From an uncultured bacterium (GTDB taxonomy: Bacteria; Babelota; Babeliae; Babelales; Vermiphilaceae), in the NCBI GenBank assembly GCA_963702025.1, contig OY969699.1, forward strand, positions 608,001 through 672,000: a stretch of DNA of 64,000 nt, in the 5' to 3' direction. The translations under genes and the position numbers were made by a program. The notes under the pieces are model-generated. The model was not told where the DNA came from. It saw only the letters and a list, made by a program, of their open reading frames with translations, and did no database searches. This document shows, piece after piece, positions 106-64,000 of this stretch (positions are counted from its first letter, which is position 1; each line of letters starts with the position of its first letter).

Positions 106-795
106 ATGCATCAAGAGTTTGCGCAGCGGGTTACCAAAAAAATATCACAGTTATATACCGGCGTTATCGATCACATTATTGCGCCGCCATTTTGCGCGTC
201 ATGCAAAAAATTTTTAACGCAGCGGATGATCTTTTGTTTGGAATGCCACGATTCAATTCAACCGATTGTCTCGGTGCAGCTGCAAGTTACCAAACTGCAT
301 GCCATAACAGTGATGGCGATTGCCGATTATCAAGAACCGCTTAAATCATTAATCTTGGCAAAAGCGTGGCACGACATTATTGCCGCCGATCAGCTTGGAC
401 AATTGATTTGGGATATGACCTGTTTTAAACATATGCCGTGCGATTATCTGGTACCTATTCCCCTGCACTGGATGCGGAGCATAAAACGGGGATACAACCA
501 AGCAGAAGAGATTGCCCGGGTATTGGCGCACAAGAAAAATGCGCAGGTTACGCCCATACTTGCACGCGTAAAAAATACACCATTTCAATCATCGCTTGCC
601 TTTGATAAACGTTTGGGCAACGTGAAGGATGCTTTTGTTTTAAAAAATGCCGATCGTGAAAAATATCAGAATAAACATATTGTTCTCGTTGATGATCTTA
701 TGACCACCGGCTCAACATTGGCTTCCGCGACAAAAATACTCCTACCATTAAAACCGGCATCAATTACTGCTGTGGTTGCGTGTCGGGTTTGTTGA
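106..795 (+). CDS. comF: ComF family double zinc-ribbon phosphoribosyltransferase-like protein
   Basis: CxxC..CxxC N-terminus, PIPLH, RGYNQ, LVDDLMTTGST PRPP-binding motif. Confidence 0.92.
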   Translation: MHQEFAQRVTKKISQLYTGVIDHIIAPPFCASCKKFLTQRMIFCLECHDSIQPIVSVQLQVTKLHAITVMAIADYQEPLKSLILAKAWHDIIAADQLGQLIWDMTCFKHMPCDYLVPIPLHWMRSIKRGYNQAEEIARVLAHKKNAQVTPILARVKNTPFQSSLAFDKRLGNVKDAFVLKNADREKYQNKHIVLVDDLMTTGSTLASATKILLPLKPASITAVVACRVC

Positions 796-2221
796 TTACG
801 TTATTTACTAACTTCTCATAATTTTCTTGCGGCGAATTTTTTTCATAGCCGAGTTCTTTATTAATCATTGGATTTTGAGTGGGATCATTTTGCTTAATGG
901 GTTTTGGTGGGATTGCCGGCAATGGTTTTAAAGCTGGTGTTTCGGTAGGTTTTAAAAGGTTTGAAACAAAAGAATTCTCTTCTTTTTCTTTTTTCTCTGA
1001 TTCGGCTTTTGCTGCGAAGCGTTGAGTGATTTCATCTTCTATTTTTTTACGAAGTGCATCTTCCTTTGCTTTTTCCTCAGCAAGTTTTTTTACGAGTTCT
1101 GCTGCGCGCTGCTCAATTTCTTCATCCATTTTCTTCTTATTTTCAACTTCGTTTTTTAACTTTTGCTCTTCGGCAAGCTTCCTTTGATTTTCTTCTTGGA
1201 TTCTTTGTTCTTCATGAGTCTTTGGATCATTGGGTAAATTGTTAATCTGATTAGCTTTGGAGAAGGCGAGAAAACCACTTGCCAATGAATCGGTAACTTC
1301 TGAGAAAATACCAACAGGGATTGTGGAGTTAGGAGTTTGGATTTTAGGTCTGCTTAGCTTCATAACCTGTTGAGGGTTATTTTTTATTAAATAAATATAT
1401 AGATTCCTGAGTAAAATATTTTCTCGATCAGTTACTTTTTTAACAAGCCAACGATGCCATTCTTTTTCAGGATCTAAAATCAGTTCTGGATCTGTATTAT
1501 GCTTGGGATGCATAGGATTAAAATAAAGCATTCCGGTACATAAATCGCGCGAGTCAGAACTAGTTAAATGATCAATAGGGAAAACATAGTGTTTACTTAG
1601 ATAATGTATTCCTTCCTTAAGAATTTCTAGAGGATTCCACCAATTATACTGTTTAAGAGCTAATGCTTTTAAATCTGCTACGCTTACTTCAAGCTTTGAC
1701 TGGTTATCTTTGATTTCTGATAATAACGATGCTGATTTATCTTTAGAAAGATTTTCATCAAACGCTTCATAATCTTCAAGATGTCTTTTATGAGTGTTAC
1801 GTTTCCAGTTTAATAATCCCAATAAAATTGCATCATCGCATTCTGAAAAAAGTTTTGGTATTTCATTTTTCGCTTTCAACATGGCGCGTAAATCAGGATG
1901 ATCAGGATTTTTTGATTCGACGATTTTATATAAGATGCTACGACTTGTTATCATGCGTGGTATAATTTTTTTTATAACTTTTTTAGAACGATCATCAAGG
2001 CAGAGTGGGTTTGTTTTAGAATGTGTGGAATTATAACTCAGGGCATCATGATAAACTTTTATGGCCTTATTATTTGTTGCATAGCCAACTTGATCAATAT
2101 GTTTATTCAGTTTATTTATTAATGCTGAGAGCAATGTATTCTCGTCCGGATCTTCCATTGATAAAGATACGCTTGGAATAGTGATTGTGAATAGGCAAAA
2201 TAATATTTTGTGAACACGCAT
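764..2221 (-). CDS. Secreted hypothetical protein with coiled coil and Pro-rich tail
   Basis: Signal peptide ending SLS|MED, E/K-rich coiled coil, KPLPAIPPKP, AGGA RBS; 3' end overlaps comF. Confidence 0.75.
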   Translation of the reverse strand: MRVHKILFCLFTITIPSVSLSMEDPDENTLLSALINKLNKHIDQVGYATNNKAIKVYHDALSYNSTHSKTNPLCLDDRSKKVIKKIIPRMITSRSILYKIVESKNPDHPDLRAMLKAKNEIPKLFSECDDAILLGLLNWKRNTHKRHLEDYEAFDENLSKDKSASLLSEIKDNQSKLEVSVADLKALALKQYNWWNPLEILKEGIHYLSKHYVFPIDHLTSSDSRDLCTGMLYFNPMHPKHNTDPELILDPEKEWHRWLVKKVTDRENILLRNLYIYLIKNNPQQVMKLSRPKIQTPNSTIPVGIFSEVTDSLASGFLAFSKANQINNLPNDPKTHEEQRIQEENQRKLAEEQKLKNEVENKKKMDEEIEQRAAELVKKLAEEKAKEDALRKKIEDEITQRFAAKAESEKKEKEENSFVSNLLKPTETPALKPLPAIPPKPIKQNDPTQNPMINKELGYEKNSPQENYEKLVNNVINKPDTQPQQ

Positions 2222-2414
2222 GGATTTCCTTTTCTCTAAATGCTCTAACTTTGTTTGTCCAGTAGTCTAAGCAACTGTTTTGACTAAATCAAATTTTTTC
2301 TTAAGAATTCGTTTCTCTATGCTAACTGGCTTGATAGGCTGCGCATTTTCGGGTATATCTAAGGTAACGGTTCTTAATTGTTCAACTTTATTTCTGCATA
2401 GAAGGATTAATGCT

Positions 2415-3443
2415 ATGAAGACATTTTCATCCAAAATTGGTGCGCTCGCAATGGTTGGTTCACTTGCTTTTTTACCAAGTTGCCAATGGTTAAAAGATAA
2501 ACTTGGAATTACTAATCAACAAACAACCATCATGGCAGATCAAGAGGCCGGCTCCGGTGAAAAAGCGCTTGCATCGGCAGGGGGCAAAACATTAATTACA
2601 GTCCCTGAGTTTCAAAAACAATTTAAAAATCTTATTGAAACACATCCGTATGGTGACATGCTTGCTCAGATGGAAGGTTTAGAAAGAAAGTTCCTTGAAG
2701 GTTTAGTAAGTCAAAAATTAATGACTCGCTATGTTATAGAAAAAGGCATTAGAGATACTGAAGAATACAAAAAACAACTTGAGCAAATGACGCAAATGCT
2801 TGATATGCGTTTCTATCAAATGCAACATCAACCAAAAGTTACCGAATCAGAAATGAGAGCATTCTTTGATCAAAATAAAGAAAATATACCGGAAGCGGCA
2901 GTTTCTCGCGGCGGCGTTCCGGTCACGGCAGTTTCATTTAGCACAGAAGCTGATGCAAAAGCATTCTTAGAAAAAGCAAAAGGTAAGGGTGCCCAGATGG
3001 AGCAAGTGGCAAAAGATGAAAAACTCGCCGATAAGTTCCGTGATTTCAAAGTGGTTAATGCAAACAGCATTGGTATCGATCCGGTGTTGCGTGATAAAGT
3101 GGTTACGTTTAAAAAACTTCCAACTCTTGAACTGGTAAAAGTAAATGATAACAGCTACTTTGTTGTCTATGCCGGCCCTAAAGAAGAGGCAAAATATCGT
3201 AGCTTTGATGAGCTGAAGGGTTCAATAGAGCAACGCTTGACGGCTAAAAAACAAGAAGAAGAGCTTGAAAAAGCAGTTGAAAAGCTCAAAAAAGATTACG
3301 ATGTGGTGATTGATGAAGAGTATTTTGCCAAAAAAGACGGTAAAGCTGGGCAAGAAGAGATTGGTGAAGAACAATTAGAAATGGTAATGCCTGAAGCGCC
3401 GGCGCAAGAAGCCCACGCAAAACCAACAGCACGTGCTGCCTAG
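2415..3443 (+). CDS. PrsA/PpiC-like chaperone lipoprotein
   Basis: Likely start ATG 2415 after GAAGGA. Lipobox-like FLPSC, SurA-like N-domain (ITVPEFQ; VTESEMRAFFDQNKE), C-terminal SFDELKGSIEQRL. Confidence 0.75.
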   Translation: MKTFSSKIGALAMVGSLAFLPSCQWLKDKLGITNQQTTIMADQEAGSGEKALASAGGKTLITVPEFQKQFKNLIETHPYGDMLAQMEGLERKFLEGLVSQKLMTRYVIEKGIRDTEEYKKQLEQMTQMLDMRFYQMQHQPKVTESEMRAFFDQNKENIPEAAVSRGGVPVTAVSFSTEADAKAFLEKAKGKGAQMEQVAKDEKLADKFRDFKVVNANSIGIDPVLRDKVVTFKKLPTLELVKVNDNSYFVVYAGPKEEAKYRSFDELKGSIEQRLTAKKQEEELEKAVEKLKKDYDVVIDEEYFAKKDGKAGQEEIGEEQLEMVMPEAPAQEAHAKPTARAA

Positions 3444-3472
3444 TATTTACACTAATAATTTTGTTATACTTA

Positions 3473-3496
3473 AAGGGGAACCATGAGGTTCCCCTT
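3473..3496. terminator. Stem-loop between the two chaperone genes
   Basis: aaggggaacc-atga-ggttcccctt. Confidence 0.5.
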
Positions 3497-5507: not shown

Positions 5508-5553
5508 ATTCTATTAAATACATTTTTTTGTTTATTTGAGAAAGGTACTCAAG

Positions 5554-11459: not shown

Positions 11460-11954
11460 ATGAAATTATTACGATACTTATTTATTTTTCTATTGGTGCC
11501 GTTAACCACTGCTTCGATGCAGGTTGCTCTCTCTACGCATCAAGAGCTGCCGGCTCTCTTAGACAACTATTACCAAGAGCATAAAACAACATTCGAATCA
11601 AAAATTTCAGCCTTTAAGCAAATGCTTGAAACACTAGACTTACTCTTAGAGAAGGATGTTGAGCTTGCTCTTCTTGATGAGCAAGAAATTCATTACCTGC
11701 AAATCTGTTTAAAATTTATCACTGAACTTGCGCAACAGTATCCACAATGGAATGCTCGGCAAACAGCAGAATGCAGCGAAGAAGAATTATTTGCTCTCTA
11801 TGATGCAGGCTTTATAGGAGCTATGAATTATCACCAATTTAGAATATTGTTTTCTCTTTCATCATTGTCTGATGACGAAAGAATTGCATTTGAAAAAGAT
11901 TTAGCTGACTTTCTTTATAAGAAACTGGCGCATGAACAAATATCAATAAACTAA
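11460..11954 (+). CDS. Secreted hypothetical protein (array type A)
   Basis: GGAGG SD, signal MKLLRYLFIFLLVPLTTAS|MQ; termini similar to 12707 gene. Confidence 0.75.
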   Translation: MKLLRYLFIFLLVPLTTASMQVALSTHQELPALLDNYYQEHKTTFESKISAFKQMLETLDLLLEKDVELALLDEQEIHYLQICLKFITELAQQYPQWNARQTAECSEEELFALYDAGFIGAMNYHQFRILFSLSSLSDDERIAFEKDLADFLYKKLAHEQISIN

Positions 11955-14462: not shown

Positions 14463-15935
14463 TTAAGCATTCTCTATTTTACTTCTGCACAAGGGGCATG
14501 GCTGCTTTACTTCCTTTATACGATCAAGGCAATCGGAGCAAAAGTTGTGTTTGCAATGTGTCTGGATATTCGCAAAATTGTCATTGCAAATGGGGCATTC
14601 TTCATAGCCCAATTTCTTATAATCAATAGAAAAGGTTTTAACCAGGTTTTGCTTGATGGTAGGGTTTGAAAAATTTTTAAAAATATTTACAAATGTTGGT
14701 GATGAAAAAACTTTTTCGGAGGGTTCATCTTCTAACCGTTTAATAAGAAGAAGCTCTAAGGCGCTAATTGAATGTTCAGTTTTTTTAATATTAATTATAT
14801 AAGCACCATTTTCAGTTCCTGCTGCAATAGTATTGCCATCACTGCTTATGGCAACGGATTGAACAGATTTATTTGCCGGTGAAAATAATTTAAAACATGA
14901 GTTTTTTGTACGATCGAATAAAACTATACCTATATTGGTTCCTAAAATAAGATTATTGTTATTCCATGGGCTTATTCTTGCTGCATTTATAGAGAATGGC
15001 GCTTCATTTCGAAATCTTACAGAAATTGTATCATCGCTTGTTTTTATAAGATAGGTCATAGTGCCATCGCTAGCCAAGAATCTATGATTACCATCGGGAG
15101 AAATATCTATATCGGCAATATTTTGAAGATCAGGATTAATTTCAATGGCCTTTGTTTTATAAGTGTTATCTTGAACCTTAAGGTACATAATGACTATTTT
15201 TGAATCGGATGCAAAAATAAAATTTTCTCCCGCTGCATCGGCTGCAAATCTTTTGATCTGAGTAACAGCCGGGGATAAATTAAGAGGGAATTCAAACTTC
15301 TTAGTGAGATCAACTAAGACGCATGAAATTTTATCACCATTTGTCTCCTCAGTGAATCGCCACTTGCCATTGGGTGAGATGGTTGAGAGTAATGCTGCTG
15401 TATCGCGAGGTAACAGGGTTAAATCTTTGGTCTTTAACGCTAATTGATAGAAACCTTTATTGTGGGCACATACAAGCATGTCATTGCCGCTAAAAGCTAT
15501 TCCATTAAGTGGAAGGGGATAGGTATTTTCATATACATCATCACCCCATCCTTGTTTCTTTTGTAGTACTTTTAATTTATTTCCATAAGCGATTGCCACT
15601 GCCGTGCCATCGTGATTCAAGGCAATGTGGTGTGCCGCTTCGGGCAATGTAACAACCGTAGAGTTATCTTTGGACACAATTCTTTGTGTTAAAGGTAATG
15701 GCTTTGCTGCTTGCACCAGATCATCATGATCAAGTCTATGACCGAGTTTGAATAAAAGAAGCTTATTTTCTGCAACCAGGGTTGATCGAGTTTTTTCTTG
15801 CGTTTCTTTATCAGCTTTAGTCAGTTCGGTAACTTTTGTTTCCCATGGATCTTTTTGTTCTAGATTCTTATCCATGGCAGTGAGAGAGCAAATAGAGAAT
15901 GTAGCAATAATTAGTGCATATTTTTTTGGTATCAT
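14463..15935 (-). CDS. Secreted WD40-like beta-propeller with C-terminal C3HC4 RING finger
   Basis: Signal ...SLTA|MD; repeats ISPDGNH, VAISSDGNTIAAG; CPIC..CKHNFCSDC..CPLCR. Confidence 0.85.
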   Translation of the reverse strand: MIPKKYALIIATFSICSLTAMDKNLEQKDPWETKVTELTKADKETQEKTRSTLVAENKLLLFKLGHRLDHDDLVQAAKPLPLTQRIVSKDNSTVVTLPEAAHHIALNHDGTAVAIAYGNKLKVLQKKQGWGDDVYENTYPLPLNGIAFSGNDMLVCAHNKGFYQLALKTKDLTLLPRDTAALLSTISPNGKWRFTEETNGDKISCVLVDLTKKFEFPLNLSPAVTQIKRFAADAAGENFIFASDSKIVIMYLKVQDNTYKTKAIEINPDLQNIADIDISPDGNHRFLASDGTMTYLIKTSDDTISVRFRNEAPFSINAARISPWNNNNLILGTNIGIVLFDRTKNSCFKLFSPANKSVQSVAISSDGNTIAAGTENGAYIINIKKTEHSISALELLLIKRLEDEPSEKVFSSPTFVNIFKNFSNPTIKQNLVKTFSIDYKKLGYEECPICNDNFANIQTHCKHNFCSDCLDRIKEVKQPCPLCRSKIENA

Positions 15936-16257: not shown

Positions 16258-16596
16258 ATGCACAAGAATTCACTATCATTGTTATTGCTTCTTGTTGGCT
16301 TATCATGCCAAATCTCTATGGTTGGTAATACATTTCAAATAAATACCAAATTTTATATCAATGATGGGACTATTAAGGCTAGCACGATAAACATTAACAC
16401 AGAAACTATAAGCGGTTCCGGGGTTATTGAGGGAAAAAAGATAACTATAACCTGCGATAAATTTGACTTTCAAGGTTCAATTGTTTGTACTGAAGAGTGT
16501 AACATCTATGCAAAAGAAACCTTCGATCCTGATAAAGTAAAATGTTCCGGCGGCGGTAAATTTACTGCTTACATTTCTAATCTTAATGCTCAGTAA
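16258..16596 (+). CDS. Small secreted beta-rich hypothetical protein
   Basis: AAGGA SD, signal peptide, alternating hydrophobic strands. Confidence 0.65.
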   Translation: MHKNSLSLLLLLVGLSCQISMVGNTFQINTKFYINDGTIKASTININTETISGSGVIEGKKITITCDKFDFQGSIVCTEECNIYAKETFDPDKVKCSGGGKFTAYISNLNAQ

Positions 16597-17030: not shown

Positions 17031-17693
17031 ATGAATAGCAAATTTCTTCTCTGTCTTTTTTTTAGTATACCATTATGTGCCATGAAACAATCTGATAATT
17101 ACAACCTTGAACTGCTCACCGGTAAGGATTTAGAATCAATATTGCCATTTGTTGCGCAACAACGCATTGAGCTCTTTCGAGAGTATCCATACCTTTATGA
17201 AGGTAATCTTACCGAAGAAATGAATTATTTAGAATGGTTTGCCAAACTACCTCACACGGCAATGGCCGTTGCCTATCATGATAAACAACCGGTTGGCTTT
17301 GTAAGTGGCACATCGTTTAAAGATTTTGATACTCATTTTAAAGGTTCGTGCGATGTTTTTCTAAAAGCCGATTTAAAACCGGAAGAATATTATTATATCA
17401 CTGAAGGAATTGTGGTGCCTGAACATCGTGGCAATGCATTGGCCCTGAAGCTCTCTGCGTTGATAGAGGGATATGCAAAAAAAATAGGATTCACCAAAGG
17501 CTGTTTCGTTGATGAAAGTCATGACAAACATCCCCTTAAGCCGGCCAATTATTATTCTCTCGAAACTGCATTTAAAAAAGCAGGATATATCAAATCACCC
17601 TTAAGTATAAAATTTAACTGGGTTACTCGGCAAGTAGCTGGCCAAGCCAGAGATCAGGAACATGAACTGTACTATTGGATGAAGAATATTTAA
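17031..17693 (+). CDS. GNAT family N-acetyltransferase with signal peptide
   Basis: RIELFREYPYLYEG, VVPEHRGNALA acetyl-CoA motif A, HPLKPANY; signal ...PLCA|MK. Confidence 0.8.
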   Translation: MNSKFLLCLFFSIPLCAMKQSDNYNLELLTGKDLESILPFVAQQRIELFREYPYLYEGNLTEEMNYLEWFAKLPHTAMAVAYHDKQPVGFVSGTSFKDFDTHFKGSCDVFLKADLKPEEYYYITEGIVVPEHRGNALALKLSALIEGYAKKIGFTKGCFVDESHDKHPLKPANYYSLETAFKKAGYIKSPLSIKFNWVTRQVAGQARDQEHELYYWMKNI

Positions 17694-20963: not shown

Positions 20964-22259
20964 ATGCGCGCATCAACAATGTTAAGAAATCTAAAAATAT
21001 CTCACAGTATCATTCTCTTACTCATGGTTGGTGTTGCAGCATCAGGAATGGTATACGATAATCGCTACCTTCCCCTCATGCAATATCCTTATATTTCCGT
21101 TCCCGGTCGAGAATCTCATCTGACCGGTGACTTTTTTGTAACAACAGCCAGTAGAGCCATAGATGATCGTGAGCGAGAAATTGGCATTATCGAACTTGCC
21201 GGGCCACTTGACCAAGCGCAGCTGGCATACTCTTTTGTATTGGATGGAAAGCCAGACCCTCTTGATCCGGGCCTCTTGGCCGGAGAATTACCCTGGACCA
21301 TCAGAGGAAAATTGCAAACACAGGGTTTTGCGTTTTCCTATCGCCAATATCTGGGATGCGGTTTTTCTGCTGGTGTTTTAACATTGGCTATGCGATCCAA
21401 TTCGTACCTCGATTTTTTCTTTAATCCTCCCAAAACGTCATCAGAAACACCACCATTTTCTCCCGGTGAAGTTGAGGAGCTAGGGCGCGTGTTGCGCGGC
21501 ATGTTTGCCGATTTGGGACTTTCATGCAATCATGTGCAGCAGGGTGGTATGGGTGATATTGAGGCATACCTACGATGGGCAAATCGCTGTGAATATTCTT
21601 ATAAATTGCGATCGCTTGAATATGCCGGGCGTTTGGGAGTGCTTATTCCTACTGGAGTTACTCGTAATATTTTTCACCCTGCTTCTATTCCATTTGGTGG
21701 CAATGGGCACTGGGGAGTGTATGCAAGCGGCGATGCGGAACTTGAGGTAAAGGAAGATTGGAAAATTGGCGTGTTGTTGCGTTTGAGTAAACGATTTGCA
21801 CGCACAAGAATTGAACGAATGCCGGTCGCGCGTCCTTTGCTGCCGGGCCAAGCGTATCCTTCTCCCAGCGAGCCACAGGTATTTGGTGTTTTGGTGGGTC
21901 CAGCCCGAGTAAATCCCGGCTTATCTGAAATTTTTTCGATGTATGCTCAATGGGAAGGTATCCGTGAAGGGCTGGGTGTTCGTTTGCAATATACGCTCGT
22001 GAATCACAATCAAGATCATTGGACTGATCTTCGCGTGGATCAAACAGTAAAAGCTAATCTTGAGCAAGTTGAAAAACTTTCATCATGGGCATCAGAATAT
22101 GTAACACTGAGTGCTTTTTATGATTTTGACAAAGTTGCACCTATTCGTGGCTATAATCCTATTGTTCGTGTAGCTTGGGATATACCATATACTTTATTAG
22201 TGGCACATAAATCGGTGCATTCATATAAAGTAGTTTTAGGTTTGGAATTTAATTTTTAA
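20964..22259 (+). CDS. Probable outer-membrane beta-barrel protein
   Basis: Signal ...AASG|MV, amphipathic strands, C-terminal VVLGLEFNF beta-signal. Confidence 0.7.
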   Translation: MRASTMLRNLKISHSIILLLMVGVAASGMVYDNRYLPLMQYPYISVPGRESHLTGDFFVTTASRAIDDREREIGIIELAGPLDQAQLAYSFVLDGKPDPLDPGLLAGELPWTIRGKLQTQGFAFSYRQYLGCGFSAGVLTLAMRSNSYLDFFFNPPKTSSETPPFSPGEVEELGRVLRGMFADLGLSCNHVQQGGMGDIEAYLRWANRCEYSYKLRSLEYAGRLGVLIPTGVTRNIFHPASIPFGGNGHWGVYASGDAELEVKEDWKIGVLLRLSKRFARTRIERMPVARPLLPGQAYPSPSEPQVFGVLVGPARVNPGLSEIFSMYAQWEGIREGLGVRLQYTLVNHNQDHWTDLRVDQTVKANLEQVEKLSSWASEYVTLSAFYDFDKVAPIRGYNPIVRVAWDIPYTLLVAHKSVHSYKVVLGLEFNF

Positions 22260-24116: not shown

Positions 24117-24500
24117 ATGAAGTTTTTTGTATCTTTCCTTATAGTTTCACTTTGTTTATCCAACGCTGCATCCGGCATGCATGTATTTGCTGAACTTTTG
24201 AACAAGAAAGTGAAGCAAAGTAAAAATGGCAATCACAAATCAACTCGAATCATTAATAAAACGTTGAGAGAATTGAATGTTCCTTTAAATCCGGATCATG
24301 TTATTGGATTTAGCGTGGGATCATCACCAAACCATTTTAATGTTTATTTTCTTATCCAACATTGGCAAGGTGTTATTCCGGTGGTTTTAAAAAAGAAAGG
24401 CTGGAGGCCAAAGTGCCAAGAAAATAGGAATCAAGAAAGTAACGATAAGCAAGAGTCACTTGAAGAAAAAAATCCCCGTTTAAAACGGGGATTTTCGTGA
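24117..24500 (+). CDS. Secreted hypothetical protein
   Basis: Signal ...AASG|MH; terminator-like hairpin inside the 3' end. Confidence 0.6.
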   Translation: MKFFVSFLIVSLCLSNAASGMHVFAELLNKKVKQSKNGNHKSTRIINKTLRELNVPLNPDHVIGFSVGSSPNHFNVYFLIQHWQGVIPVVLKKKGWRPKCQENRNQESNDKQESLEEKNPRLKRGFS

Positions 24501-24654: not shown

Positions 24655-25329
24655 TTACTTATTTTCTAAATTAGCTTCGGGAATACCCAGATGATATGCA
24701 ACTATTTTTAAGTCATCCATATCAAGCGATTTATTGAGTGGTGCTGCTTCAGTAAGTTTCGCGGAAAGATTTTTTTGTATTTGGGTAATCCGTGTCTGTA
24801 AATGGGCCTGTTTTGTTAAGTGGAGTGCCATCTCTTGATTAATAATCTCTTTATTTCTGCTGTAGCATGCTTGAAGGCATAATAATAGTTCATCCGTTTC
24901 TGCGTATGAACGCTCTTCTAAAGGTATTTTTTCATTAGCAATAAGTGTTTCATAATCGTTAATTTCTTGCTCAGCATCAGCAACTCTCTCTTTATTTTTA
25001 TCTAATACTGATTTGAGTATTTTTTCTTCTTGGGTGGATGTGACCCAGGGTGCTTTTGAAAAATCGGTGTTTATAAAAAATACTCTAATAGCTTCTTCGA
25101 ACACCATATTATTCTTGTGTGCTTCTTGGACCAATTGTTTTAATTTTTCTGTGCGCTCTGGAGTGAGTTCGCGGTTTGGACCATTAAAAAGAGTAGGTTC
25201 AATAGGGCATATCACTGGACTTGTTTGGCACTTTCCATCCTTAACGGAAATAAGATGTGGTAATTCCATAGCAGGGAGTGCACTTATGGATAATGCACAT
25301 AAAGTTGAACAGGCTATTATTTTGTTCAT
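24655..25329 (-). CDS. Secreted coiled-coil hypothetical protein, paralog 2
   Basis: Start MNKII after AAGGA; signal ...ALPA|ME; PVICPI, EKLKQL, EMALHL shared with 25373 gene. Confidence 0.75.
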   Translation of the reverse strand: MNKIIACSTLCALSISALPAMELPHLISVKDGKCQTSPVICPIEPTLFNGPNRELTPERTEKLKQLVQEAHKNNMVFEEAIRVFFINTDFSKAPWVTSTQEEKILKSVLDKNKERVADAEQEINDYETLIANEKIPLEERSYAETDELLLCLQACYSRNKEIINQEMALHLTKQAHLQTRITQIQKNLSAKLTEAAPLNKSLDMDDLKIVAYHLGIPEANLENK

Positions 25330-26085: not shown

Positions 26086-26637
26086 TTATTTGTTGGTTCG
26101 TTTTTGCCGCTTATTTGGGGCATTATTTTCTGCCGGCGTTAAATCGAGGGTTTTCACACTAATGGGAACAGTATCAATTTGTTTTTGAAGTGTAGCAATT
26201 TGCACTAAACCTAGATTTGCTCGAGCAGACAATAACTGTTTAGTGACTTCTAGTTTTCTTACCAGCGGCGCTATTTCTTTATGAGCAATCTGTTCAACTG
26301 TTTGGCTTTTTTTGGGGCGCAAGTAGAGATCGGTGTCGCAGTCTTCTAATTCATATTCTAGTTTTGTAATTCTTTCAATCAAGAATTTCTCACAATTTTG
26401 TAGAGTATTATTTAAAAGATAAGGTTGTAACAGGTGTGGAAGGCTATTTAGTATGTCACTTGATTCTTGGTTACGTGCTTTATCGATACTATTATTTATG
26501 CCGTCTATCACAAATTGGCAGAATCTAACTTTTTTTGATTCACGTTCAATGAAGGAAGCTCGTTTCATGCCGTGTGCGGTGACTACTAGAGAACAAAAAA
26601 GAATTATTGTTGCATATCGTAGGGAGATCATTATCAT
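26086..26637 (-). CDS. Secreted hypothetical protein with basic C-terminus
   Basis: Signal ...TAHG|MKR; ends PNKRQKRTNK. Confidence 0.65.
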   Translation of the reverse strand: MIMISLRYATIILFCSLVVTAHGMKRASFIERESKKVRFCQFVIDGINNSIDKARNQESSDILNSLPHLLQPYLLNNTLQNCEKFLIERITKLEYELEDCDTDLYLRPKKSQTVEQIAHKEIAPLVRKLEVTKQLLSARANLGLVQIATLQKQIDTVPISVKTLDLTPAENNAPNKRQKRTNK

Positions 26638-40779: not shown

Positions 40780-41238
40780 ATGTATCTTTCACGATATAAT
40801 AGGGTTATTTTATTGAGTCTTTTGGTCACAGGTTATCAAGTAAAAGGCATGCAATCTCCCAGCAATGAGGAAAAAGAGAAAATTGAGGCTGAATTCAGTA
40901 AAGAATTTGAAAGGCTTGCGGTCCTAGTGCGCCAACGATCAGGATCTTCATTTATTGAAGGAGCTATTGGTAAAATTAAAGAGATCGCATCCAGAGGTGC
41001 CTTAACAAACGATATCTATCGCCGGGAATCAATCGCTCATCAAAGATGTCGGGTGTTAGGAATTGCTGAGGCTACTATAGATAGAGTTAAATCTGCAATT
41101 AGTGCTGAAATTGCGGTTCATGGAGCGGAATTTGCTTGGGATTCTAATGATGTTCATTCTCTGCCAATGCATTTGGAACGTGCATGCATCAATAAAAATT
41201 ATATCGAATATCATTTTGGTAACGGGATAACAAAATAG
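40780..41238 (+). CDS. Secreted hypothetical protein, paralog 1
   Basis: AGGAG SD; signal ...VKG|MQ; RVLGIAE, LERACINK. Confidence 0.75.
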   Translation: MYLSRYNRVILLSLLVTGYQVKGMQSPSNEEKEKIEAEFSKEFERLAVLVRQRSGSSFIEGAIGKIKEIASRGALTNDIYRRESIAHQRCRVLGIAEATIDRVKSAISAEIAVHGAEFAWDSNDVHSLPMHLERACINKNYIEYHFGNGITK

Positions 41239-41246: not shown

Positions 41247-41672
41247 ATGATACAACTTCGTTATTGGGTACTCATAGTACCAACTATTTTTACCATGCAT
41301 GTAATGCAACCGTCTCAAGAGTATGAACAATTCGTTGAGAAAAGTGATGCTGCCATAGAAAAGCTTGAATTTTATGTACGCAGGTATGGAATATATTCGG
41401 CAATTGAAAGCGAGATAGCTACTGTCAAAGCTATTTCTAGCAAAAACCCACAATTTAATGAAATGGATCGAGCTCGCAGAATGAGTGCGCGCCGGCGGTT
41501 ATTAGGTATAGCCGAGGCAATAAAAATCGTGGCTCAGGTAGAAATGCAAATCAACGAAGGTTTGGGGGAACAAAAAATTTTGCTCGAACGGTTAGAACGT
41601 GCTTGCATTAATAAACGGTGTATCAAAAAATTGTTTTTTGCAAAAGATGGTAAAAAACCGGTAAAGTCATAA
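41247..41672 (+). CDS. Secreted hypothetical protein, paralog 2
   Basis: RLLGIAE, LERACINK shared with 40780. Confidence 0.75.
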   Translation: MIQLRYWVLIVPTIFTMHVMQPSQEYEQFVEKSDAAIEKLEFYVRRYGIYSAIESEIATVKAISSKNPQFNEMDRARRMSARRRLLGIAEAIKIVAQVEMQINEGLGEQKILLERLERACINKRCIKKLFFAKDGKKPVKS

Positions 41673-48642: not shown

Positions 48643-49188
48643 TTATTCATTAAAATTCTGCCATGCGGGGATAGCAAATGAACCTGCTTCTTTTATTTCT
48701 TTTTCACACTTTACATCATAGGTAAGCGTAGAACCATAGACTTTTCCTGGTATTTCTAGAATTTCAACAACGATTTTATTTGGTTTGGGACATTTTTTAG
48801 ATGCGAAGAATTCAACAAGGCGGTGAATGTCTATTTCCTGTCCTGGTTTGTTAGGGTGCCCAAAGCCGATTTTAAATGCTTTGCTGCCATAATTTGATTC
48901 TTTATATGAAAGGGTTTTTTCAAGCGCCTCCATATCTTTTTGACTCAAATTATTCGGAAGTTTGGTAAAGTATAATTCTTGTGATACCTGACCGGGTTTT
49001 AGAGATACCTTTTTGGTGTAGTTTTTATCAAAATATTTACTTACGTCTTTTGCGTAAATGTCTATAGGGTTTTTGGTTTTATTTATAAAATAAGCCGGGG
49101 AATATTCCTCACCTCCTGGGGTCATCCCAAAAGATGCTGCAGTACTTATTAAAGCTAGGGCTATCGGGCATTTGTTAAATATTTTCAT
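48643..49188 (-). CDS. Secreted hypothetical protein, paralog 1
   Basis: AAGGAG SD; signal ...SFG|MT; AYFINKTKNPIDI, YTKKVSL, TLTYDVKC. Confidence 0.7.
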   Translation of the reverse strand: MKIFNKCPIALALISTAASFGMTPGGEEYSPAYFINKTKNPIDIYAKDVSKYFDKNYTKKVSLKPGQVSQELYFTKLPNNLSQKDMEALEKTLSYKESNYGSKAFKIGFGHPNKPGQEIDIHRLVEFFASKKCPKPNKIVVEILEIPGKVYGSTLTYDVKCEKEIKEAGSFAIPAWQNFNE

Positions 49189-49337: not shown

Positions 49338-51182
49338 ATGAACTCTAACTATTTTTTACTGTTTTTTGGCTTTGCAAGTATCTTGAACTATGGGATGGAA
49401 ATGCCCGAAAAACCCAAAGAAAAGCCCAAAATAACGGTTATTTCTGATCAAAAGAGCTGGGAACTGGAACAAGACATTGTTTTTCAGGCCAAAACCCTTG
49501 CTCACCAGGTTAAAGATGTAAATCAGGCATATTTGCCCCCTTCAATATCTGCTGATTCCTTTGATCTTGCGATCCCCTTTCTGGACCTTGTCAACAAAAT
49601 TAAGAATAATGAAGCAGAAAAAGAAGAATTATCGGCAAAACTTAAGGAATGTGCGGATAATAATAAACTGGTTACTCTGGCCATTATGGCAGATTATGCT
49701 GATGCGCCAATTCTCAATCAATCTTGTATTCAAGAAATTGCCGGGCGTTTTACTGATAGTCGACTAATAAAGGACATGCTCAAATCCAAAGATTCCGAAT
49801 ATCATACGCTTCCCCAGACATTGCAATACAATGTAGCAGATGAAAGCACAAAAAAAAATAAACTTCTGCAGAGATTATTTTTTGCTCAAAATAGGCCACT
49901 TTTTAAAGCAGAATCGGTTCCTCTTAATAATGTAGAGATGAATGGCAAGACGGGGCATGTGGCAGCAAGAGGAGCAGATGGTGCGGTATATTTTTGGAAC
50001 CTTGCCACCGGGGCCTTTTATGGGCGATTGGTAAATACAAATCCACGCAATTATGTGCGTGCGGTCGCATTCAATAAAAAAGGAACGGCTCTTCTTACCG
50101 GTAATGATAATAGAACTATTGGTATATGGAACTTTGGCCCATTTCAAGAAACTAAATATGATGGTATCCGTAAAACAGCCGGTTCGAATATACTTTTTTT
50201 AAAACTTGGCTTTTTGGATAACGATACCAAGTTTTTTTCCTTTGATAACAACTATGATATTCATATCTGGGATCTGTCAGGAAAACTCCTAAAAAAATGG
50301 CAGCATGCTGACGATATTAAACAACTTGAACATTATTCCCATGCGGATAACTGGTTGGTAACGGCTGATAAATCAACGGTAAATCTCTTTAATTTCCTGA
50401 CGCAAAAACAAACGCAGTTAACCACGCAAGCCAAGACCACGATATATGCCGGTCATCGGGGAACTCAGTATATGCTATCAAACGTTAGCGCCATACAGGT
50501 TAATCCCAATGGCAAACAACTGGCTGTTGGATTTGGCAATGGCCAAATCGCTCATTTTGATTTGACTAAACCGGTGATCGACGGTGAATATGCTCCCGAA
50601 ACGATAGATTTGCACTCTGAAGTAAAGGCAATCGCCTGTGATCCGATTGATGGCACAATCGCGGCCGGTTATACCGGAAGTATCGATGGACGTGGCTCAA
50701 TTATAGTATGGAACCCCCGATCAAAAGAAACATATCGTCTGAATAATGAGGAAGAAGTAAAAGCTCTTTCTTTTAATGCCAACGGAAATTTGCTTGCTGC
50801 TACTTCAGGGAAGCAGATAAAAATATGGAACCTTCCCCTCAAGCAGTGTGTGCAAATTTTAACCAATGATTGCAATGAAGGAATACATAAAGCAGTGTTC
50901 GTGGATGATCATCATATTTGCGCAACAGATTACGGTTGTAATTTTATAACCTGGAAAACACATGATCCGCAAAGAATCAAGCAGGTAAAAGATCTTACCA
51001 TCTCTCAGCTTGCCTGTTTACTCTATTTCTTGGATGCGGCAGAAAACAAATCTCCTATGGAAATCACCGATTCAATAAGGGAGATATTGGTAAATCTTCC
51101 TAATTGGGCAAAAGATTATATACATCATTTATTGCCGGTGAAGGAACGTGTTGGTTTATACAAGAGTGCCATTAAAAAATAA
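49338..51182 (+). CDS. Secreted Skp1/BTB-like plus WD40-repeat protein
   Basis: Signal ...NYG|ME; KTLAHQVKD, LVTLAIMADYADAPIL..SC; WD repeats ending YFWN, GIWN, HIWD, IVWN, KIWN. Confidence 0.8.
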   Translation: MNSNYFLLFFGFASILNYGMEMPEKPKEKPKITVISDQKSWELEQDIVFQAKTLAHQVKDVNQAYLPPSISADSFDLAIPFLDLVNKIKNNEAEKEELSAKLKECADNNKLVTLAIMADYADAPILNQSCIQEIAGRFTDSRLIKDMLKSKDSEYHTLPQTLQYNVADESTKKNKLLQRLFFAQNRPLFKAESVPLNNVEMNGKTGHVAARGADGAVYFWNLATGAFYGRLVNTNPRNYVRAVAFNKKGTALLTGNDNRTIGIWNFGPFQETKYDGIRKTAGSNILFLKLGFLDNDTKFFSFDNNYDIHIWDLSGKLLKKWQHADDIKQLEHYSHADNWLVTADKSTVNLFNFLTQKQTQLTTQAKTTIYAGHRGTQYMLSNVSAIQVNPNGKQLAVGFGNGQIAHFDLTKPVIDGEYAPETIDLHSEVKAIACDPIDGTIAAGYTGSIDGRGSIIVWNPRSKETYRLNNEEEVKALSFNANGNLLAATSGKQIKIWNLPLKQCVQILTNDCNEGIHKAVFVDDHHICATDYGCNFITWKTHDPQRIKQVKDLTISQLACLLYFLDAAENKSPMEITDSIREILVNLPNWAKDYIHHLLPVKERVGLYKSAIKK

Positions 51183-56240: not shown

Positions 56241-57446
56241 TTATTCCCACAGAACACTTTGTTTTATTTTTTCCTTTAATAAGTTGTTTATAAACTTAAT
56301 ATCAAAGTCAAGTTGTTCTGATTTTCCTTTCTGCAGTTGAATAAGGAGGCGTTGTTTTTCTTTATATAGATCATCATAATTCATCTCTTGCCAAGCTTGC
56401 TCTCTTGAAGGCTTAAGCGCTACTTGAGGAGCTTTTTCAGTTTTTGCTTTTGCTTCTATTTCTGCAATCCTTTTTTGTAGCTCTTCTGGAGTTGTTTTTG
56501 CTTCTCTTTCTGCAATCCTTTTTTGTAACTCTTCTGGAGTAATTGTCCCCAACGGAGATACTTTTGCGGCAACTATTGGCAGTAGTAGTTTTTTGAGGCT
56601 TTCAAGTAAGGTGTTTTCTTTCATGCGTAAGCCTCGTAATGCAAGTTTTATTTCTTCTCGTTGTGCAGCTTCTTTTTTACCCTCACCAAGTTCTCTTTCT
56701 TTCTCAGCTAACGGTTGCCGTTCGGCATCAATTTGTTTCAATTGTTCTATTATTTCCGCTTGTTCTTTTGAAGGTATTTGCGCTGGCCATTCAACTCCTT
56801 TTCTTGCTAAAAGTTCTGTAATTTCTTTAATTCTTTCTTGTTGAACCGATTCTCCTAAGATTACCGGAAGAACCACGGATGCAATACCTTTTGGAGCAGG
56901 AGGAGCCGGTGGTGCTGGCGGAACTGGCGGTTTAACAGGTTCTTGCACTGGAGCCTTTGGTTGTGCAGGTGCAGGTTTTATTACTGGTACTAATCGAACT
57001 GGTGTCACTTTTACCTGTTCTCGTGGCGGAACAGCTGGTGGTGTCTTTTTGATAGGTTCTTCGCGTGCTGGAACGGGTGGAGCTTTAGGTTTTGGTTGAG
57101 GTAATGTTGGCAATGGTCGCGCTGCCATCGGCTGTTGTGCTAATGAAGCTTTGATTGCCTTTTCTATTTCCGCTTGTTCTTGCGCAGCGATTATTTCCTT
57201 CTTTTCTTGTTCTAAATTTTCCCACAAAGAAAGCAATGATCCAACAGTGGCTTCTCGCTCTTGCTCACTAATATTTGGATTTTGATAAATCTGCCCCAGT
57301 GAGTTTTGAATTCTGGTGATTTCATCATCTATATTTTCAATTGAAGGTTTTACTCTCAGTCGGGGAAGCTCAGGAAGTTCCATCCCACTACTCAAGCAAG
57401 TGATGCCTATGAGGGCTAAGGCAAGTAATAGTAAATTTTTCTTCAT
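56241..57446 (-). CDS. Secreted Pro-rich coiled-coil protein with UIM-like and SH3-ligand motifs
   Basis: AAGGAG SD; signal ...LSSG|ME; EIEKAIKASL; RPLPTLP, PPVPAR, PAVPPR; TPEELQKRIAE twice. Confidence 0.8.
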   Translation of the reverse strand: MKKNLLLLALALIGITCLSSGMELPELPRLRVKPSIENIDDEITRIQNSLGQIYQNPNISEQEREATVGSLLSLWENLEQEKKEIIAAQEQAEIEKAIKASLAQQPMAARPLPTLPQPKPKAPPVPAREEPIKKTPPAVPPREQVKVTPVRLVPVIKPAPAQPKAPVQEPVKPPVPPAPPAPPAPKGIASVVLPVILGESVQQERIKEITELLARKGVEWPAQIPSKEQAEIIEQLKQIDAERQPLAEKERELGEGKKEAAQREEIKLALRGLRMKENTLLESLKKLLLPIVAAKVSPLGTITPEELQKRIAEREAKTTPEELQKRIAEIEAKAKTEKAPQVALKPSREQAWQEMNYDDLYKEKQRLLIQLQKGKSEQLDFDIKFINNLLKEKIKQSVLWE

Positions 57447-63122: not shown

Positions 63123-63432
63123 AGATTTTTTTGCCTTTGCGTTTTATAGAGTAAAAAACTCGGGTTTTATCTTCCGAAGCAATATCAAATTCTGCTTTAC
63201 CTAAGACTAGAATATCTTTTGAAATATCTAAGCCTAACAATGCTCTATGGCCTTCAGACATAGCTTTAAACAGATTTTTAGGGTCACATTTATCTACAAT
63301 GATAAGCAGATCAAGATCACTTTCCTCATCCGCGGTGCCACGCGCATAAGATCCAAAGATATATATCTCAACTGGGTTAAATGTCTCAATAAGCCGTTTT
63401 TTTATCTCTTCTATCATCTTTGCGTCAATCAT
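63109..63432 (-). CDS. Minimal nucleotidyltransferase (MNT)
   Basis: IFGSYARGTADEESDLDL; GGAG SD; overlaps the HEPN start. Confidence 0.9.
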   Translation of the reverse strand: MIDAKMIEEIKKRLIETFNPVEIYIFGSYARGTADEESDLDLLIIVDKCDPKNLFKAMSEGHRALLGLDISKDILVLGKAEFDIASEDKTRVFYSIKRKGKKIYARA

Positions 63433-63503
63433 TGGATACTCCAAAGGTTAGTAAAACTAAGTTTATCAAATCTGGATGATACAAGTAAATAATGAAATAT
63501 GCC

Positions 63504-63554
63504 GACTATTGCTAAAGTGGGTCAGCGGTTGCTAGTGTAAAGCTGGTTTTAGTT
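63504..63554 (+). repeat. 51-bp direct repeat, copy 2
   Basis: One mismatch to 62668-62718. Confidence 0.92.
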
Positions 63555-63577
63555 CCTTTAGCTTGTAAACGGTAACT

Positions 63578-64000
63578 ATGGTTTACATTAGTATCGTTGT
63601 GGCGTTTTTTTTAGTTGGAATGAATAGTAATGCCATGGAGTTGAGTGACCAAGAGTTACTTGAGCATTGTGGTGCTACAACACAAGCGCCGCTTTTGGAA
63701 TTTCCTTTTCAGCTAGTTCAGCTTATGCCGATTGTTATTTATAGATGGAATGGCAAATATGCTATTCATCGAATGACCGCTTATAAAAAAAGTAATTTGT
63801 ATGGGTTGTCTGAAAAAGATTTGCAATGCATTAAAAATGAAAATTTTGTCATAACTGATAATTTTACCATTATTAAAGATCCATCCGACAAAAGTTCAGT
63901 GCTGGCAGGAGCCATCATATTAAACACCAAGGATAACTCATTGTTCTGCAAATTAAAATGCGCTAATTTGTGGGCCTGTGATTATCTTGATAAAATGATG
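63578..64000 (+). CDS. Secreted hypothetical protein, 5' part (runs off the window)
   Basis: MVYISIVVAFFLVGMNSNA|MELSDQELL..., open for 141 codons to the window end. Confidence 0.7.
   Translation, partial: MVYISIVVAFFLVGMNSNAMELSDQELLEHCGATTQAPLLEFPFQLVQLMPIVIYRWNGKYAIHRMTAYKKSNLYGLSEKDLQCIKNENFVITDNFTIIKDPSDKSSVLAGAIILNTKDNSLFCKLKCANLWACDYLDKMM

Follow-up and report, generated by a model that had tools for sequence, protein, structure and literature searches.

We analyzed a window of 64,000 nucleotides from the genome of an uncultured bacterium (order Babeliales of the phylum Dependentiae, formerly TM6; GTDB phylum Babelota, Vermiphilaceae; GenBank assembly GCA_963702025.1, contig OY969699.1, positions 608,001 to 672,000; G000:C1:608001-672000 in the numbering used here) and found a recurrent pattern at the predicted cleavage sites of its signal peptides: Across the genome, about one-fifth of all genes appear to encode an export signal that ends directly before a methionine (Met), usually followed by glutamate (Glu). 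We refer to this pattern as the “Met rule,” count residues from the cut (-1 for the last residue of the leader, +1 for the first residue of the mature chain), and call proteins that follow it carriers, or tagged. The +1 Met mark is found mainly on ankyrin and ubiquitin-type proteins with a likely role within the host cell and is probably a protection or address tag, and the sequence patterns described below suggest that Met-[Glu/Asp/Asn/Gln] (Met-[E/D/N/Q]) most likely has a function once the leader is cut off and marks host-directed cargo specifically. Our preferred reading, to which we give a probability of about 0.35, is that the exposed N-terminus would act as a host-compatible protection tag for effectors in the host cytosol. 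A first-pass annotation of the window had reported Met at +1 in 15 strong and 3 weak cases, and all 18 sites read as quoted on translation.

The source genome (G000) is a single contig of 1,596,033 bp with 39% G+C, in which a greedy, longest-first caller placed 1,670 open reading frames (ORFs). All cleavage sites were predicted by a custom, loose rule based on the hydrophobic (h) region and the -3/-1 residues. ORFs were taken as signal-peptide-like if they had K/R in the n-region and an uncharged 8-residue window with a Kyte-Doolittle (KD) value of at least 1.9, with a start no more than 25 codons from the first start; a candidate site had A/G/S at -1, a permitted residue at -3, and a distance of at most 9 residues from the end of the h-region, and sites were weighted per protein. 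By this loose rule, 931 of the 1,670 ORFs were signal-peptide-like, an over-generous count that takes in membrane proteins and some cytoplasmic proteins, and 787 of them had at least one -3/-1 site. Upon weighting the predicted +1 positions genome-wide, we found Met at 19.6% of them, compared to 1.9% in mature regions, i.e., a 10.6-fold enrichment; the runners-up were Cys (1.5-fold), Tyr (1.4), and Ser (1.4), and no residue other than Met exceeded 1.5-fold. The motif was present in 269 of the 1,670 ORFs by a strict rule, in 300 by a relaxed rule, in 368 by a rule that ignores -1/-3, and in 412 by the union of these, and some cases recognized by eye still escape every rule.

The motif consists of an n-h-c signal peptide ending in [L/A/S]-x-[A/G/S], followed by Met. 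In the strict-rule set (n = 269), -3 is L/A/S/I, -1 is A (130), G (85), or S (54), +2 is Glu in 137, Gln in 27, and Asp in 13 cases, +3 is Lys in 64, Leu in 31, and Met in 18, and +4 is Pro in 66; common junction strings are A↓MEKPE, A↓MEMP, and G↓MELP, where the arrow marks the predicted cut. When the constraint on -1 was dropped, A/G/S still preceded 265 of the 368 junction Mets (A 131, G 77, S 57), with L (91), A (65), S (46), I (43), T (32), and V (27) at the equally unconstrained -3 position. The coupling between the Met and its surroundings depended on distance from the h-region: For Mets at +2 to +10 from the h-region end, -1 was A/G/S in 64.8% and +2 was Glu in 38%, compared to 20.5% and 5.1%, respectively, for Mets elsewhere. 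Among the relaxed-rule carriers, +2 was E/D/N/Q in 205 of 300 (68%, against a background of 21%), while small residues that are permissive for Met-aminopeptidase made up 18% of +2 positions in carriers (background 37%) and L/I/F/Y/W 7% (background 27%). The codons at -1, +2, and +3 are used as in the genome overall, which argues that the constraint acts on the amino acid, at the level of the protein.

By their mature parts, the 300 relaxed-rule carriers fall into 191 BLAST clusters (E<1e-5), 166 of them with a single member; the largest is made up of 68 proteins, every one an ankyrin protein. Taking one representative per cluster (n = 191), we still found Glu at +2 in 87, Gln in 17, and Asp in 12. 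The first-pass annotation had spoken of about 18 unrelated proteins; the carriers are indeed broadly unrelated, but that description understated the scale (269 to 412 ORFs) and does not fit the large ankyrin cluster.

The leaders have the features of Sec-type signal peptides that are cut by type I signal peptidase (SPase I), namely n-region charge, an uncharged h-region, and small residues at -1/-3, in a genome that carries an SPase I gene. Their net charge is at least 1 in 277 of the 300 carriers, a figure partly built in since the rule required at least one K/R; their median length is 22 residues (5 to 95% range, 17 to 30), their mean KD value is 1.8 over the h- and c-regions, and the 20 residues after the Met are hydrophilic (mean KD, -0.62). 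They thus resemble classical Sec/SPase I leaders in their n-h-c regions, length, charge, and small -3/-1 residues, and differ from the classical rule in a near-fixed Met at +1 with E/D/N/Q at +2. Three other leader classes were considered and rejected. A lipoprotein leader, cut by type II signal peptidase (SPase II), is at odds with Met rather than Cys at +1, and a lipobox-like string occurs in only 10 of 300 leaders; the true lipoprotein of the window (2280-3443, ...LPS↓C) is without the Met. For a twin-arginine translocation (Tat) leader, the motif RR-x-[FGAVML]-[LITMVF] occurs in 0 of 300 and any RR in 3 of 300. In a type IV prepilin the hydrophobic stretch would follow the cut, whereas here it precedes it, and the mean KD value over +1 to +20 exceeds 1.0 in 7 of 300 only; of the prepilin-type marks, Glu at +5 is present in 38 and Gly at -1 in 79 of 300 carriers. 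As to the export machinery, we observed a single SPase I gene (Peptidase_S26, G000:C1:839975-840799, 119.5 bits), two T2SSE-type ATPases that passed the cut-off, and two secretins encoded in tandem, while profile searches of the source genome for type III (FHIPEP) and type IV (VirB4) secretion systems gave no match. Sec together with a system of the type II secretion system (T2SS) kind is the sole export route detected in this genome.

The identity of the carriers was assessed with a Pfam scan of 104 of 234 filtered carriers and 150 of 284 filtered non-carriers, i.e., those lying wholly inside single 20-kb stretches of two 400-kb genome samples. Ankyrin repeats were found in 27 of the 104 carriers and in 6 of the 150 non-carriers (Fisher p = 5e-7, with unequal cut-offs of 1e-5 for carriers and 1e-8 for non-carriers), and 3 to 4 of these six “non-carriers” do have the Met on inspection (C↓ME, FHA↓ME, FLA↓MS, SP↓MG). 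One ankyrin carrier also has an IBR/RBR domain, and the other sampled carriers include a UCH deubiquitinase, a SET domain, a tyrosine phosphatase, PLD, HD_4, four GNATs, two chagasin-type inhibitors, enzymes of cytoplasmic type (LigD-like, MutS-like, PPDK_N, SDR), a beta-lactamase-fold protein, GH1, S49, and PT-HINT; 57 have no family. The sampled non-carriers comprise one RING and one Sel1 protein, two secretins, OmpA, M23, Amidase_3, MreC, SpoIID, a DegP-like protease, many alpha/beta and other hydrolases, and ~100 proteins without a family. Classical envelope families account for 1 of 104 carriers compared to 8 of 150 non-carriers (p = 0.09). Since the non-carriers include secretins, OmpA, other envelope families, and many hydrolases, proteins expected to leave the periplasm as well, or to stay in the envelope, appear to do without the Met. 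Genome-wide, genes matching Ank_2 have a junction Met in 65 of 88 cases by rule and in ~73 by eye, RING matches have it in 6 of 7, and the sole F-box-like match is tagged as well; the U-box profile found no match in the source genome and was silent in the control genomes too.

Some of these proteins deserve mention in their own right. An ankyrin gene island at G000:C1:1351889-1366721 holds more than 30 Ank_2 matches in 15 kb. Signal-peptide-like leaders are found on several normally cytoplasmic enzymes of the same contig, i.e., a LigD primase-polymerase/phosphoesterase (107859-109478, - strand), whose leader may be a lipobox (VVGC↓S), a MutS-like protein (386285-388363, + strand), a PPDK_N protein of 1,144 residues (329141-332572, + strand), and an SDR (53876-54718, + strand). 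Neither Cys content nor even or odd Cys counts differed between tagged, untagged, and cytoplasmic proteins; the window encodes a VKOR homologue (5536-5946, + strand; E=9e-27), a DsbB-type periplasmic disulfide oxidase, yet exported proteins have no even-Cys bias.

We scored other Babeliales genomes with the identical script. All relatives compared measure 0.8 to 1.8 Mb and are labelled here by family (f) and genus (g); kin are not independent, and the 100-kb samples are small. The +1 Met was enriched 6.1-fold in 400 kb of G006, which belongs to the same genus as the source (46 of 173 signal-peptide-like ORFs tagged, 28 of the 46 with Met-[E/D/N/Q]), and 6.9-fold in 400 kb of G009, from the same family and another genus (41 of 172, and 20 of 41). 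Samples of 100 kb from f1 gave 7.4-fold for G025 (g15; 11 of 54 tagged, 7 of the 11 with Met-Asp/Gln/Asn and none with Glu), 6.8-fold for G035 (g19; 5 of 42), 2.4-fold for G041 (g22; 4 of 51), and 1.3-fold for G036 (g20; 1 of 28), and samples of the same size gave 6.2-fold for G021 of f10 (9 of 58, 7 of the 9 with Met-[E/D/N/Q]) and 4.8-fold for G016 of f5 (5 of 50, none with Met-[E/D/N/Q]). Values near or below unity were obtained for G017 of f6 (400 kb; 1.3-fold; 13 of 189, none with Met-[E/D/N/Q]) and, in 100 kb each, for G013 of f2 (0.7-fold; 1 of 44), G015 of f4 (0.8-fold; 1 of 31), and G018 of f7 (0.6-fold; 1 of 39). That these four families give only 0.6- to 1.3-fold shows that the script does not create the Met signal. 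Hence, the Met rule is a patchy lineage trait within one order. Where it recurs with its +2 preference (G006, G009, G025, G021), the class E/D/N/Q recurs rather than Glu alone. Best matches in G006 were tagged, untagged, and leaderless in 23, 9, and 2 cases for tagged queries and in 14, 50, and 18 cases for untagged queries; conservation judged by orthologues was weak, as such matches are only 30 to 40% identical and often paralogous. The Met is kept among paralogues and homologues that are only 30 to 40% identical.

Among the components that we compared, i.e., secretins, a RimL-like GNAT, and SPase I, none tracks the rule. The tandem secretin pair is present in all 21 genomes searched, with a third copy in some no-rule families, and secretin copy number does not correlate with the rule. 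SPase I is single-copy, and its catalytic Ser and Lys boxes are alike in families with and without the rule; in an alignment of 12 sequences (6 of 18 loci were left out, among them those of G008 and G009), the enzymes of genera g1 and g4 have an insertion of ~40 residues between the catalytic boxes, which is absent in G012 (f1) and in most other families. The exported RimL-like GNAT (G000:C1:997016-997609) was rejected as a candidate N-terminal acetylase, as it was not found in the rule-bearing genomes G006 and G009. Comparison of three exported GNATs with PDB sequences yielded 0, 7, and 0 matches, the seven being PA3944-type and spermidine acetyltransferases, with no N-terminal acetyltransferase among them.

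How might such a mark work? In the reading that we prefer, SPase I, presumably the product of the sole SPase I gene, would cut the Sec-type leader directly before the conserved Met, and the exported protein would then start with Met-Glu, or with Met-Asp, Met-Asn, or Met-Gln. Tagged cargo would reach the host cytosol, where such an N-terminus may be favored in that the Met would be kept, no N-degron would be formed, and the chain would begin like the native eukaryotic N-termini of the NatB class; Pro, which is frequent at +4, might further slow aminopeptidases. N-termini of the type Met-Asp, Met-Glu, Met-Asn, or Met-Gln retain their Met, as they are not substrates of Met-aminopeptidase, and are NatB substrates in eukaryotes, and an N-terminal Met is not a primary, secondary, or tertiary destabilizing residue of the Arg/N-degron pathway. 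While 68% of the predicted mature N-termini fall exactly into this NatB class, they are made in the bacterium and would meet host enzymes only after delivery. We rank the host-compatible N-terminus first because the +2 class, interchangeable across lineages, is the Met-retaining class that is native to eukaryotic cytosolic proteins, because small and hydrophobic +2 residues are depleted, and because the cargo probably targets cytosolic or nuclear host systems while secreted-type hydrolases are untagged. The first-pass annotation had offered, as one of three options, a host-like N-terminus or a mark for a second export step, and this option is compatible with the -3/-1 coupling, the 10-fold enrichment, the concentration of the Met on ankyrin, RING, UCH, and SET proteins with its lack in classical envelope proteins, and the 68% share of E/D/N/Q; the function itself we infer from these patterns.

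Several observations weigh against this reading. NatB normally acts on nascent chains at the ribosome, and acetylation of a delivered protein is therefore not expected by default. At +2, Glu is ~8 times commoner than Asp, which avoidance of N-degrons alone does not explain, and the same holds for the Pro at +4 (66 of 269). The number of ankyrin proteins among the sampled carriers drops to 24 or 25 of 104 at 1e-8, the cut-off used for non-carriers, and there are carriers that look like envelope or housekeeping proteins, i.e., an outer-membrane-protein-like MVYDNRY family, an S49 peptidase, the beta-lactamase-fold protein, GH1, and the MutS-like protein. Moreover, no Pfam family was assigned to ~55% of the sampled carriers or to two-thirds of the sampled non-carriers, so that only the annotated minority speaks to the functional split. 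Finally, ankyrin proteins with signal peptides but without the Met rule exist in other Babeliales families (G017, G013, G015, G018), which argues that the tag is not a general requirement.

In our ranking, the host-compatible N-terminus is followed by a sorting signal as a nearly equal second, then by a preference of the peptidase, an internal start, and a relic of gene capture, in order of decreasing probability. A sorting signal, which we regard as possible and somewhat more doubtful than protection, would mean that the exposed Met-Glu-x-Pro is read in a second step, by a T2SS-like secretin pathway, by vesicle loading, by another translocator, or at the vacuole membrane, and that this step directs the tagged part of the periplasmic proteins to the outside and on into the host, by a logic like that of the lipoprotein +2/+3 rules or of the Plasmodium export element (PEXEL). 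It fits well with the finding that only an effector-like subset of the exported proteins is tagged and that the information sits in the first two to four mature residues (+2 Glu 137 of 269, +3 Lys 64, +4 Pro 66), as in known N-terminal sorting rules. The strong preference for Glu over Asp and the Pro at +4 suggest a specific reader and are better explained in this way than by protection, and Sec with a T2SS-type system is the sole export route detected. However, no candidate reader tracks the rule, given that the secretin pair occurs in all 21 genomes and that SPase I is single-copy with the same boxes; the +2 residue drifts between lineages within E/D/N/Q; and secreted-type hydrolases, which presumably exit the cell as well, are untagged. 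We consider it unlikely that the pattern reflects a mere subsite preference of SPase I, which would cleave best before Met-Glu and to which fast-evolving genes would have adapted, with no role for the residues after cleavage. The lineage-specific nature of the rule, the presence of one SPase I in f1 genomes with its ~40-residue insertion in g1 and g4, and the Bacteroidetes Q-rule as a precedent for a lineage-wide +1 preference (PMC5837995) all speak for such a preference. Yet only about one-fourth to one-third of the signal-peptide-like proteins have the Met, the leaders of envelope housekeeping proteins, which evolve fast as well, are without it, apparent paralogue pairs in the window differ (11460 versus 12707; 48643 versus 48109), the catalytic Ser and Lys boxes are the same in no-rule families, and G012 of f1 lacks the insertion.

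The remaining two explanations place the origin of the Met in translation initiation or in gene history, and both had been options of the first-pass annotation. If the Met were a second initiation site, a leaderless cytoplasmic isoform would result, which would make sense for exported copies of cytoplasm-type enzymes: The mature part begins exactly with the in-frame ATG, some carriers are enzymes whose substrates are cytoplasmic (LigD-like, MutS-like, PPDK_N), and a clear Shine-Dalgarno (SD) motif is missing from about half of the true starts as well, such that SD-independent initiation exists. We nonetheless consider this option improbable. SD-like GGA/AGG motifs at -18 to -4 were found before 2.2%/2.6% of the +1 Met codons, compared to 49%/48% of the true starts of the same genes and 14%/11% of the other internal ATGs of carrier genes, which puts the +1 Met below even the latter. 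Folding of a ±30-nt window also gave a lower mean minimum free energy around the +1 Met (-10.5 kcal/mol) than around junctions without Met (-9.5), other internal ATGs (-9.05), or true starts (-5.5), so that the mRNA is more structured there. Position 2 of true starts, tabulated over all 1,258 ORFs of at least 150 residues, is Lys in 25 to 32%, then Asn, with Glu in only 5 to 6%, whereas after the +1 Met Glu reaches ~50% and Lys is rare; a start codon, moreover, needs no tight coupling to A/G/S at -1. Still less probable, in our estimate, is a relic: Genes that were captured or re-targeted would have acquired a leader upstream of their former start codon, whose Met would simply persist, or one leader cassette would have spread among genes. 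The many carriers with eukaryotic-type domains would suit a relic, as would the position of the Met in enzymes only 4 to 8 residues upstream of the start of signal-less homologues. It is this very offset, however, that puts the two out of register: The start of the signal-less Omnitrophica SDR P0115 (MKKAIVIG) aligns 8 residues downstream of the +1 Met, and that of the signal-less GNAT P0135 aligns 4 residues downstream in the family of the window GNAT (17031..17693), where the Met is found in the three closest homologues only. For the SDR family, 120 homologues were listed, carrying the names Dependentiae, TM6, or Babeliales where a source was given, and the Rossmann motif served as anchor for 108. 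Almost every one of these has a leader; leader plus Met is confined to P0001, P0002, P0004, and P0006 (64 to 100% identity to the query), with Ile in its place in P0003. Since ~100 leader-bearing Dependentiae SDR homologues lack the Met, and the GNAT family behaves alike, the Met arose after the leader. A relic is also at odds with the persistence of the Met at only 30 to 40% identity and with a Glu preference that differs from the genome's own starts, and the spread of a common leader cassette was rejected, as nucleotide similarity between leaders was limited to 18 of 44,850 pairs of carriers from different clusters. For the two families examined, SDR and GNAT, the relic reading thus seems largely refuted. 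The pattern points to selection, with a Met that was gained repeatedly in proteins already bearing a leader and is kept among highly divergent paralogues.

Known systems offer several parallels. In the Lol-avoidance signal of Escherichia coli lipoproteins, with Asp at +2, and in the lipoprotein export signal of Bacteroidetes, one to four residues after the cleavage site decide the fate of the protein; these sorting rules act on lipidated Cys N-termini made by SPase II, whereas Met-rule proteins have no Cys there. In Plasmodium, the PEXEL motif RxLxE/Q/D is cut after Leu, and the new x-E/Q/D N-terminus is acetylated and needed for export into the host cell. Like PEXEL, the Met rule is a motif of a parasite that spans a processing site and places E/Q/D at position 2 after cleavage; unlike the Met rule, PEXEL belongs to a eukaryotic pathway of the endoplasmic reticulum with plasmepsin V and a different upstream motif, so that the likeness is one of functional analogy only. 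By this analogy one may speculate, with due reserve, that the cut by SPase I exposes a code of two residues, Met-[Glu/Asp/Asn/Gln], which would be the bacterial equivalent of PEXEL. It would mark some 300 to 400 Sec-exported proteins, one-fifth of the proteome, for transfer out of the periplasm or vacuole to the host cytosol, where this N-terminus would pass for that of a native host protein. The closest known phenomenon is the Q-rule of Bacteroidetes, in which Gln at +1 of SPase I substrates is cyclized to pyroglutamate by glutaminyl cyclase (PMC5837995, PMC10653852), a demonstration that lineage-wide +1 preferences exist (PMC5837995). The two rules share a lineage-specific favored residue directly after the SPase I site, a large share of exported proteins, and a proposed protection of the N-terminus. 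They differ in the residue, which here is Met, with Gln at only 5.3% of the weighted +1 positions (1.17-fold); in scope, as the Met rule is limited to an effector-like subset and does not extend to most SPase I substrates; in distribution, which is phylum-wide for the Q-rule and patchy within one order for the Met rule; and in the modifying enzyme, as no counterpart of glutaminyl cyclase is known for the Met rule and the exported RimL-like GNAT candidate is not conserved in rule genomes.

Within the same order, the main text on Babela massiliensis reports signal peptides on 79 of 126 ankyrin proteins and type II as the only secretion system, and proposes that the signal-peptide ankyrins reach the amoeba cytoplasm (PMC4378268), while that on Chromulinavorax destructans reports signal peptides for 44% of coding sequences (PMC6561590). 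On these points, both agree with the T2SS-only finding and the high share of signal peptides in the source genome. The signal-peptide and secretion passages in the main text of these two papers, supplements aside, make no mention of a residue rule at the cleavage site (PMC4378268, PMC6561590), and literature searches, again with supplements set aside, returned no published description of the Met rule. The rule is thus seemingly undescribed.

To our knowledge, Dependentiae are widespread, almost uncultured parasites of protists; about half of their proteins bear a signal peptide, and a dedicated system for injecting effectors is not known from them. The Met mark bears on the question of how the ankyrin, RING, deubiquitinase, and SET proteins of these bacteria get into the host and survive there. 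If our reading is right, a mark in the sequence that parts host-directed cargo from envelope proteins would provide a testable handle, would permit effectors to be predicted from nothing but sequence in hundreds of metagenome-assembled genomes (MAGs), and would add a second lineage-specific +1 rule to the one known for the Sec pathway, the Q-rule of Bacteroidetes; a PEXEL-like code, if real, would be a new class of effector-delivery signal in bacteria without a type III, IV, or VI system. Its patchy spread lets sister families be contrasted with one another in the search for the machinery or the host trait involved. Gene annotation may be affected as well, because an in-frame ATG lies at the mature start; in both cases checked (P0001, P0121), the public protein is the long form.

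In the window, the Met codons of the 18 cases lie 17 to 28 codons downstream of the leader start codons (17 ATG, 1 GTG). In the 15 strong cases, a basic n-region is followed by an uncharged hydrophobic core and then by A/G/S at -1, directly before the Met, except that the n-region is very short and without a basic residue in the genes at 49338 and 63578; the weak cases at 16258 (QIS↓MV), 26020 (LLT↓MN), and 41247 (MHV↓MQ) are less canonical. The strict rule flagged 11 of the 36 signal-peptide-like window ORFs, where less than 1 of 36 would be expected at the 1.9% background of Met; one flag was false (a multi-pass transporter, 28932-30329), and five strong cases were missed, owing to a start more than 25 codons in, an n-region without K/R, or an ORF open at the window end. 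Of the 18 tagged proteins, 14 are ORFans and the other four are a RING protein, a WD40 protein, a GNAT, and an outer-membrane-protein-like protein; exported proteins without the tag include a peptidyl-prolyl isomerase (PPIase), a lipoprotein, two MetA-type porins, a TPR protein, a DUF294 nucleotidyltransferase, and several ORFans. As the first-pass annotation had stated, the SurA-like/PPIase protein (3517), the TPR protein (43538), the DUF294 nucleotidyltransferase (45843), and the protein at 26688 are without the Met.

Four carriers have a recognizable fold or character. The gene at 14463..15935 (- strand; ...SICSLTA↓MDKN, +1 Met codon 15873-15875) encodes a beta-propeller with a C-terminal RING, the latter assignment of the first-pass annotation being supported by zf-C3HC4_3 (E=3.6e-8) and zf-RING_2 (E=4.1e-7). 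The exported GNAT acetyltransferase lies at 17031..17693 (+ strand; leader MNSKFLLCLFFSIPLCA↓MKQS, Met codon 17082-17084; Acetyltransf_1 E=5.5e-7). The gene at 49338..51182 (+ strand; leader MNSNYFLLFFGFASILNYG↓MEMPEKP, Met codon 49395-49397) had been called Skp1-like; the Met is present, but the only matches are to a WD40-type beta-propeller (WD40 E=4.9e-16). The outer-membrane-protein-like product of 20964..22259 (+ strand; ...MVGVAASG↓MVYDNRY, Met codon 21048-21050), which by reading ends in ...LGLEFNF and has no Pfam family, is an envelope-type exception with Met-Val, and x-x-A/G↓MV[YF]DNRY is kept in 5 of 5 MAG homologues.

The ORFans with Glu or Asp at +2 are found at 764..2221 (- strand; 485 residues, no Pfam family; leader MRVHKILFCLFTITIPSVSLS↓MEDPD, Met codon 2156-2158), at 24655..25329 (- strand; leader MNKIIACSTLCALSISALPA↓MELP, Met codon 25267-25269; ORF open upstream to 25446), at 33177..33695 (+ strand; leader MKQIAHKIMIGILLTQTLSLSA↓MDWW, Met codon 33243-33245), at 56241..57446 (- strand; proline-rich; leader MKKNLLLLALALIGITCLSSG↓MELPELP, Met codon 57381-57383), and at 63578..64000 (+ strand; open at the window end; leader MVYISIVVAFFLVGMNSNA↓MELSD, Met codon 63635-63637). 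The protein of 56241..57446 had been labelled UIM; it does carry the Met, but the label found no support, as there was no Pfam match at E<=0.001. Further ORFans lie at 11460..11954 (+ strand; leader MKLLRYLFIFLLVPLTTAS↓MQVA, Met codon 11517-11519), 24117..24500 (+ strand; ...LSNAASG↓MHVF, 24177-24179), 26086..26637 (- strand; ...SLVVTAHG↓MKRA, 26566-26568), 33715..34293 (+ strand; ...CMQMLALSA↓MRGE, 33784-33786), 40780..41238 (+ strand; ...LLVTGYQVKG↓MQSP, 40849-40851), and 48643..49188 (- strand; ...LISTAASFG↓MTPG, 49123-49125). The weak cases are 16258..16596 (+ strand; an ORFan; ...GLSCQIS↓MVGN, 16318-16320), 25373..26020 (- strand; the GTG start; ...VQMNSLLT↓MNKA, 25958-25960), and 41247..41672 (+ strand; ...PTIFTMHV↓MQPS, 41304-41306). 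By reading of translations, 25373..26020 is paralogue-like to 24655-25329, 33715..34293 to 33177-33695, and 41247..41672 to 40780-41238. Two other genes are paralogue-like by reading to a carrier and lack the Met, i.e., 12707-13252 (...MAIA↓VNSD), in the region adjacent to 11460-11954, and 48109-48630 (...TTSWG↓IGPV), the neighbor of 48643-49188; these pairs provide natural material for testing the role of the Met.

The window contains a number of further features. Two RNA genes were identified, a tRNA-Ser(CGA) at 20735-20826 (+ strand), with which a spurious listed ORF (20602-20934, - strand) overlaps, and a class A RNase P RNA at 35057-35406 (- strand; 231 bits). Phenol_MetA_deg outer-membrane channel paralogues stand in tandem at 8256-9308 and 9426-10460 (+ strand; E=3e-35 and 9e-37). 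Pairs of a nucleotidyltransferase and a HEPN/substrate-binding protein, toxin-antitoxin-like, are located at 35952-36646 (+ strand) and 62742-63444 (- strand), and an antidote-like ORF is found at 59634-60029. At 39500-40382 (- strand), a DDE_3 transposase (E=3.6e-36) follows a helix-turn-helix-like ORF, with which it overlaps in a different frame; the element looks IS630-type, with a frameshift that may be programmed or accidental. Lastly, genes for archease and the RtcB RNA ligase adjoin each other at 53794-55722 (+ strand; E=1e-25 and 5e-172).

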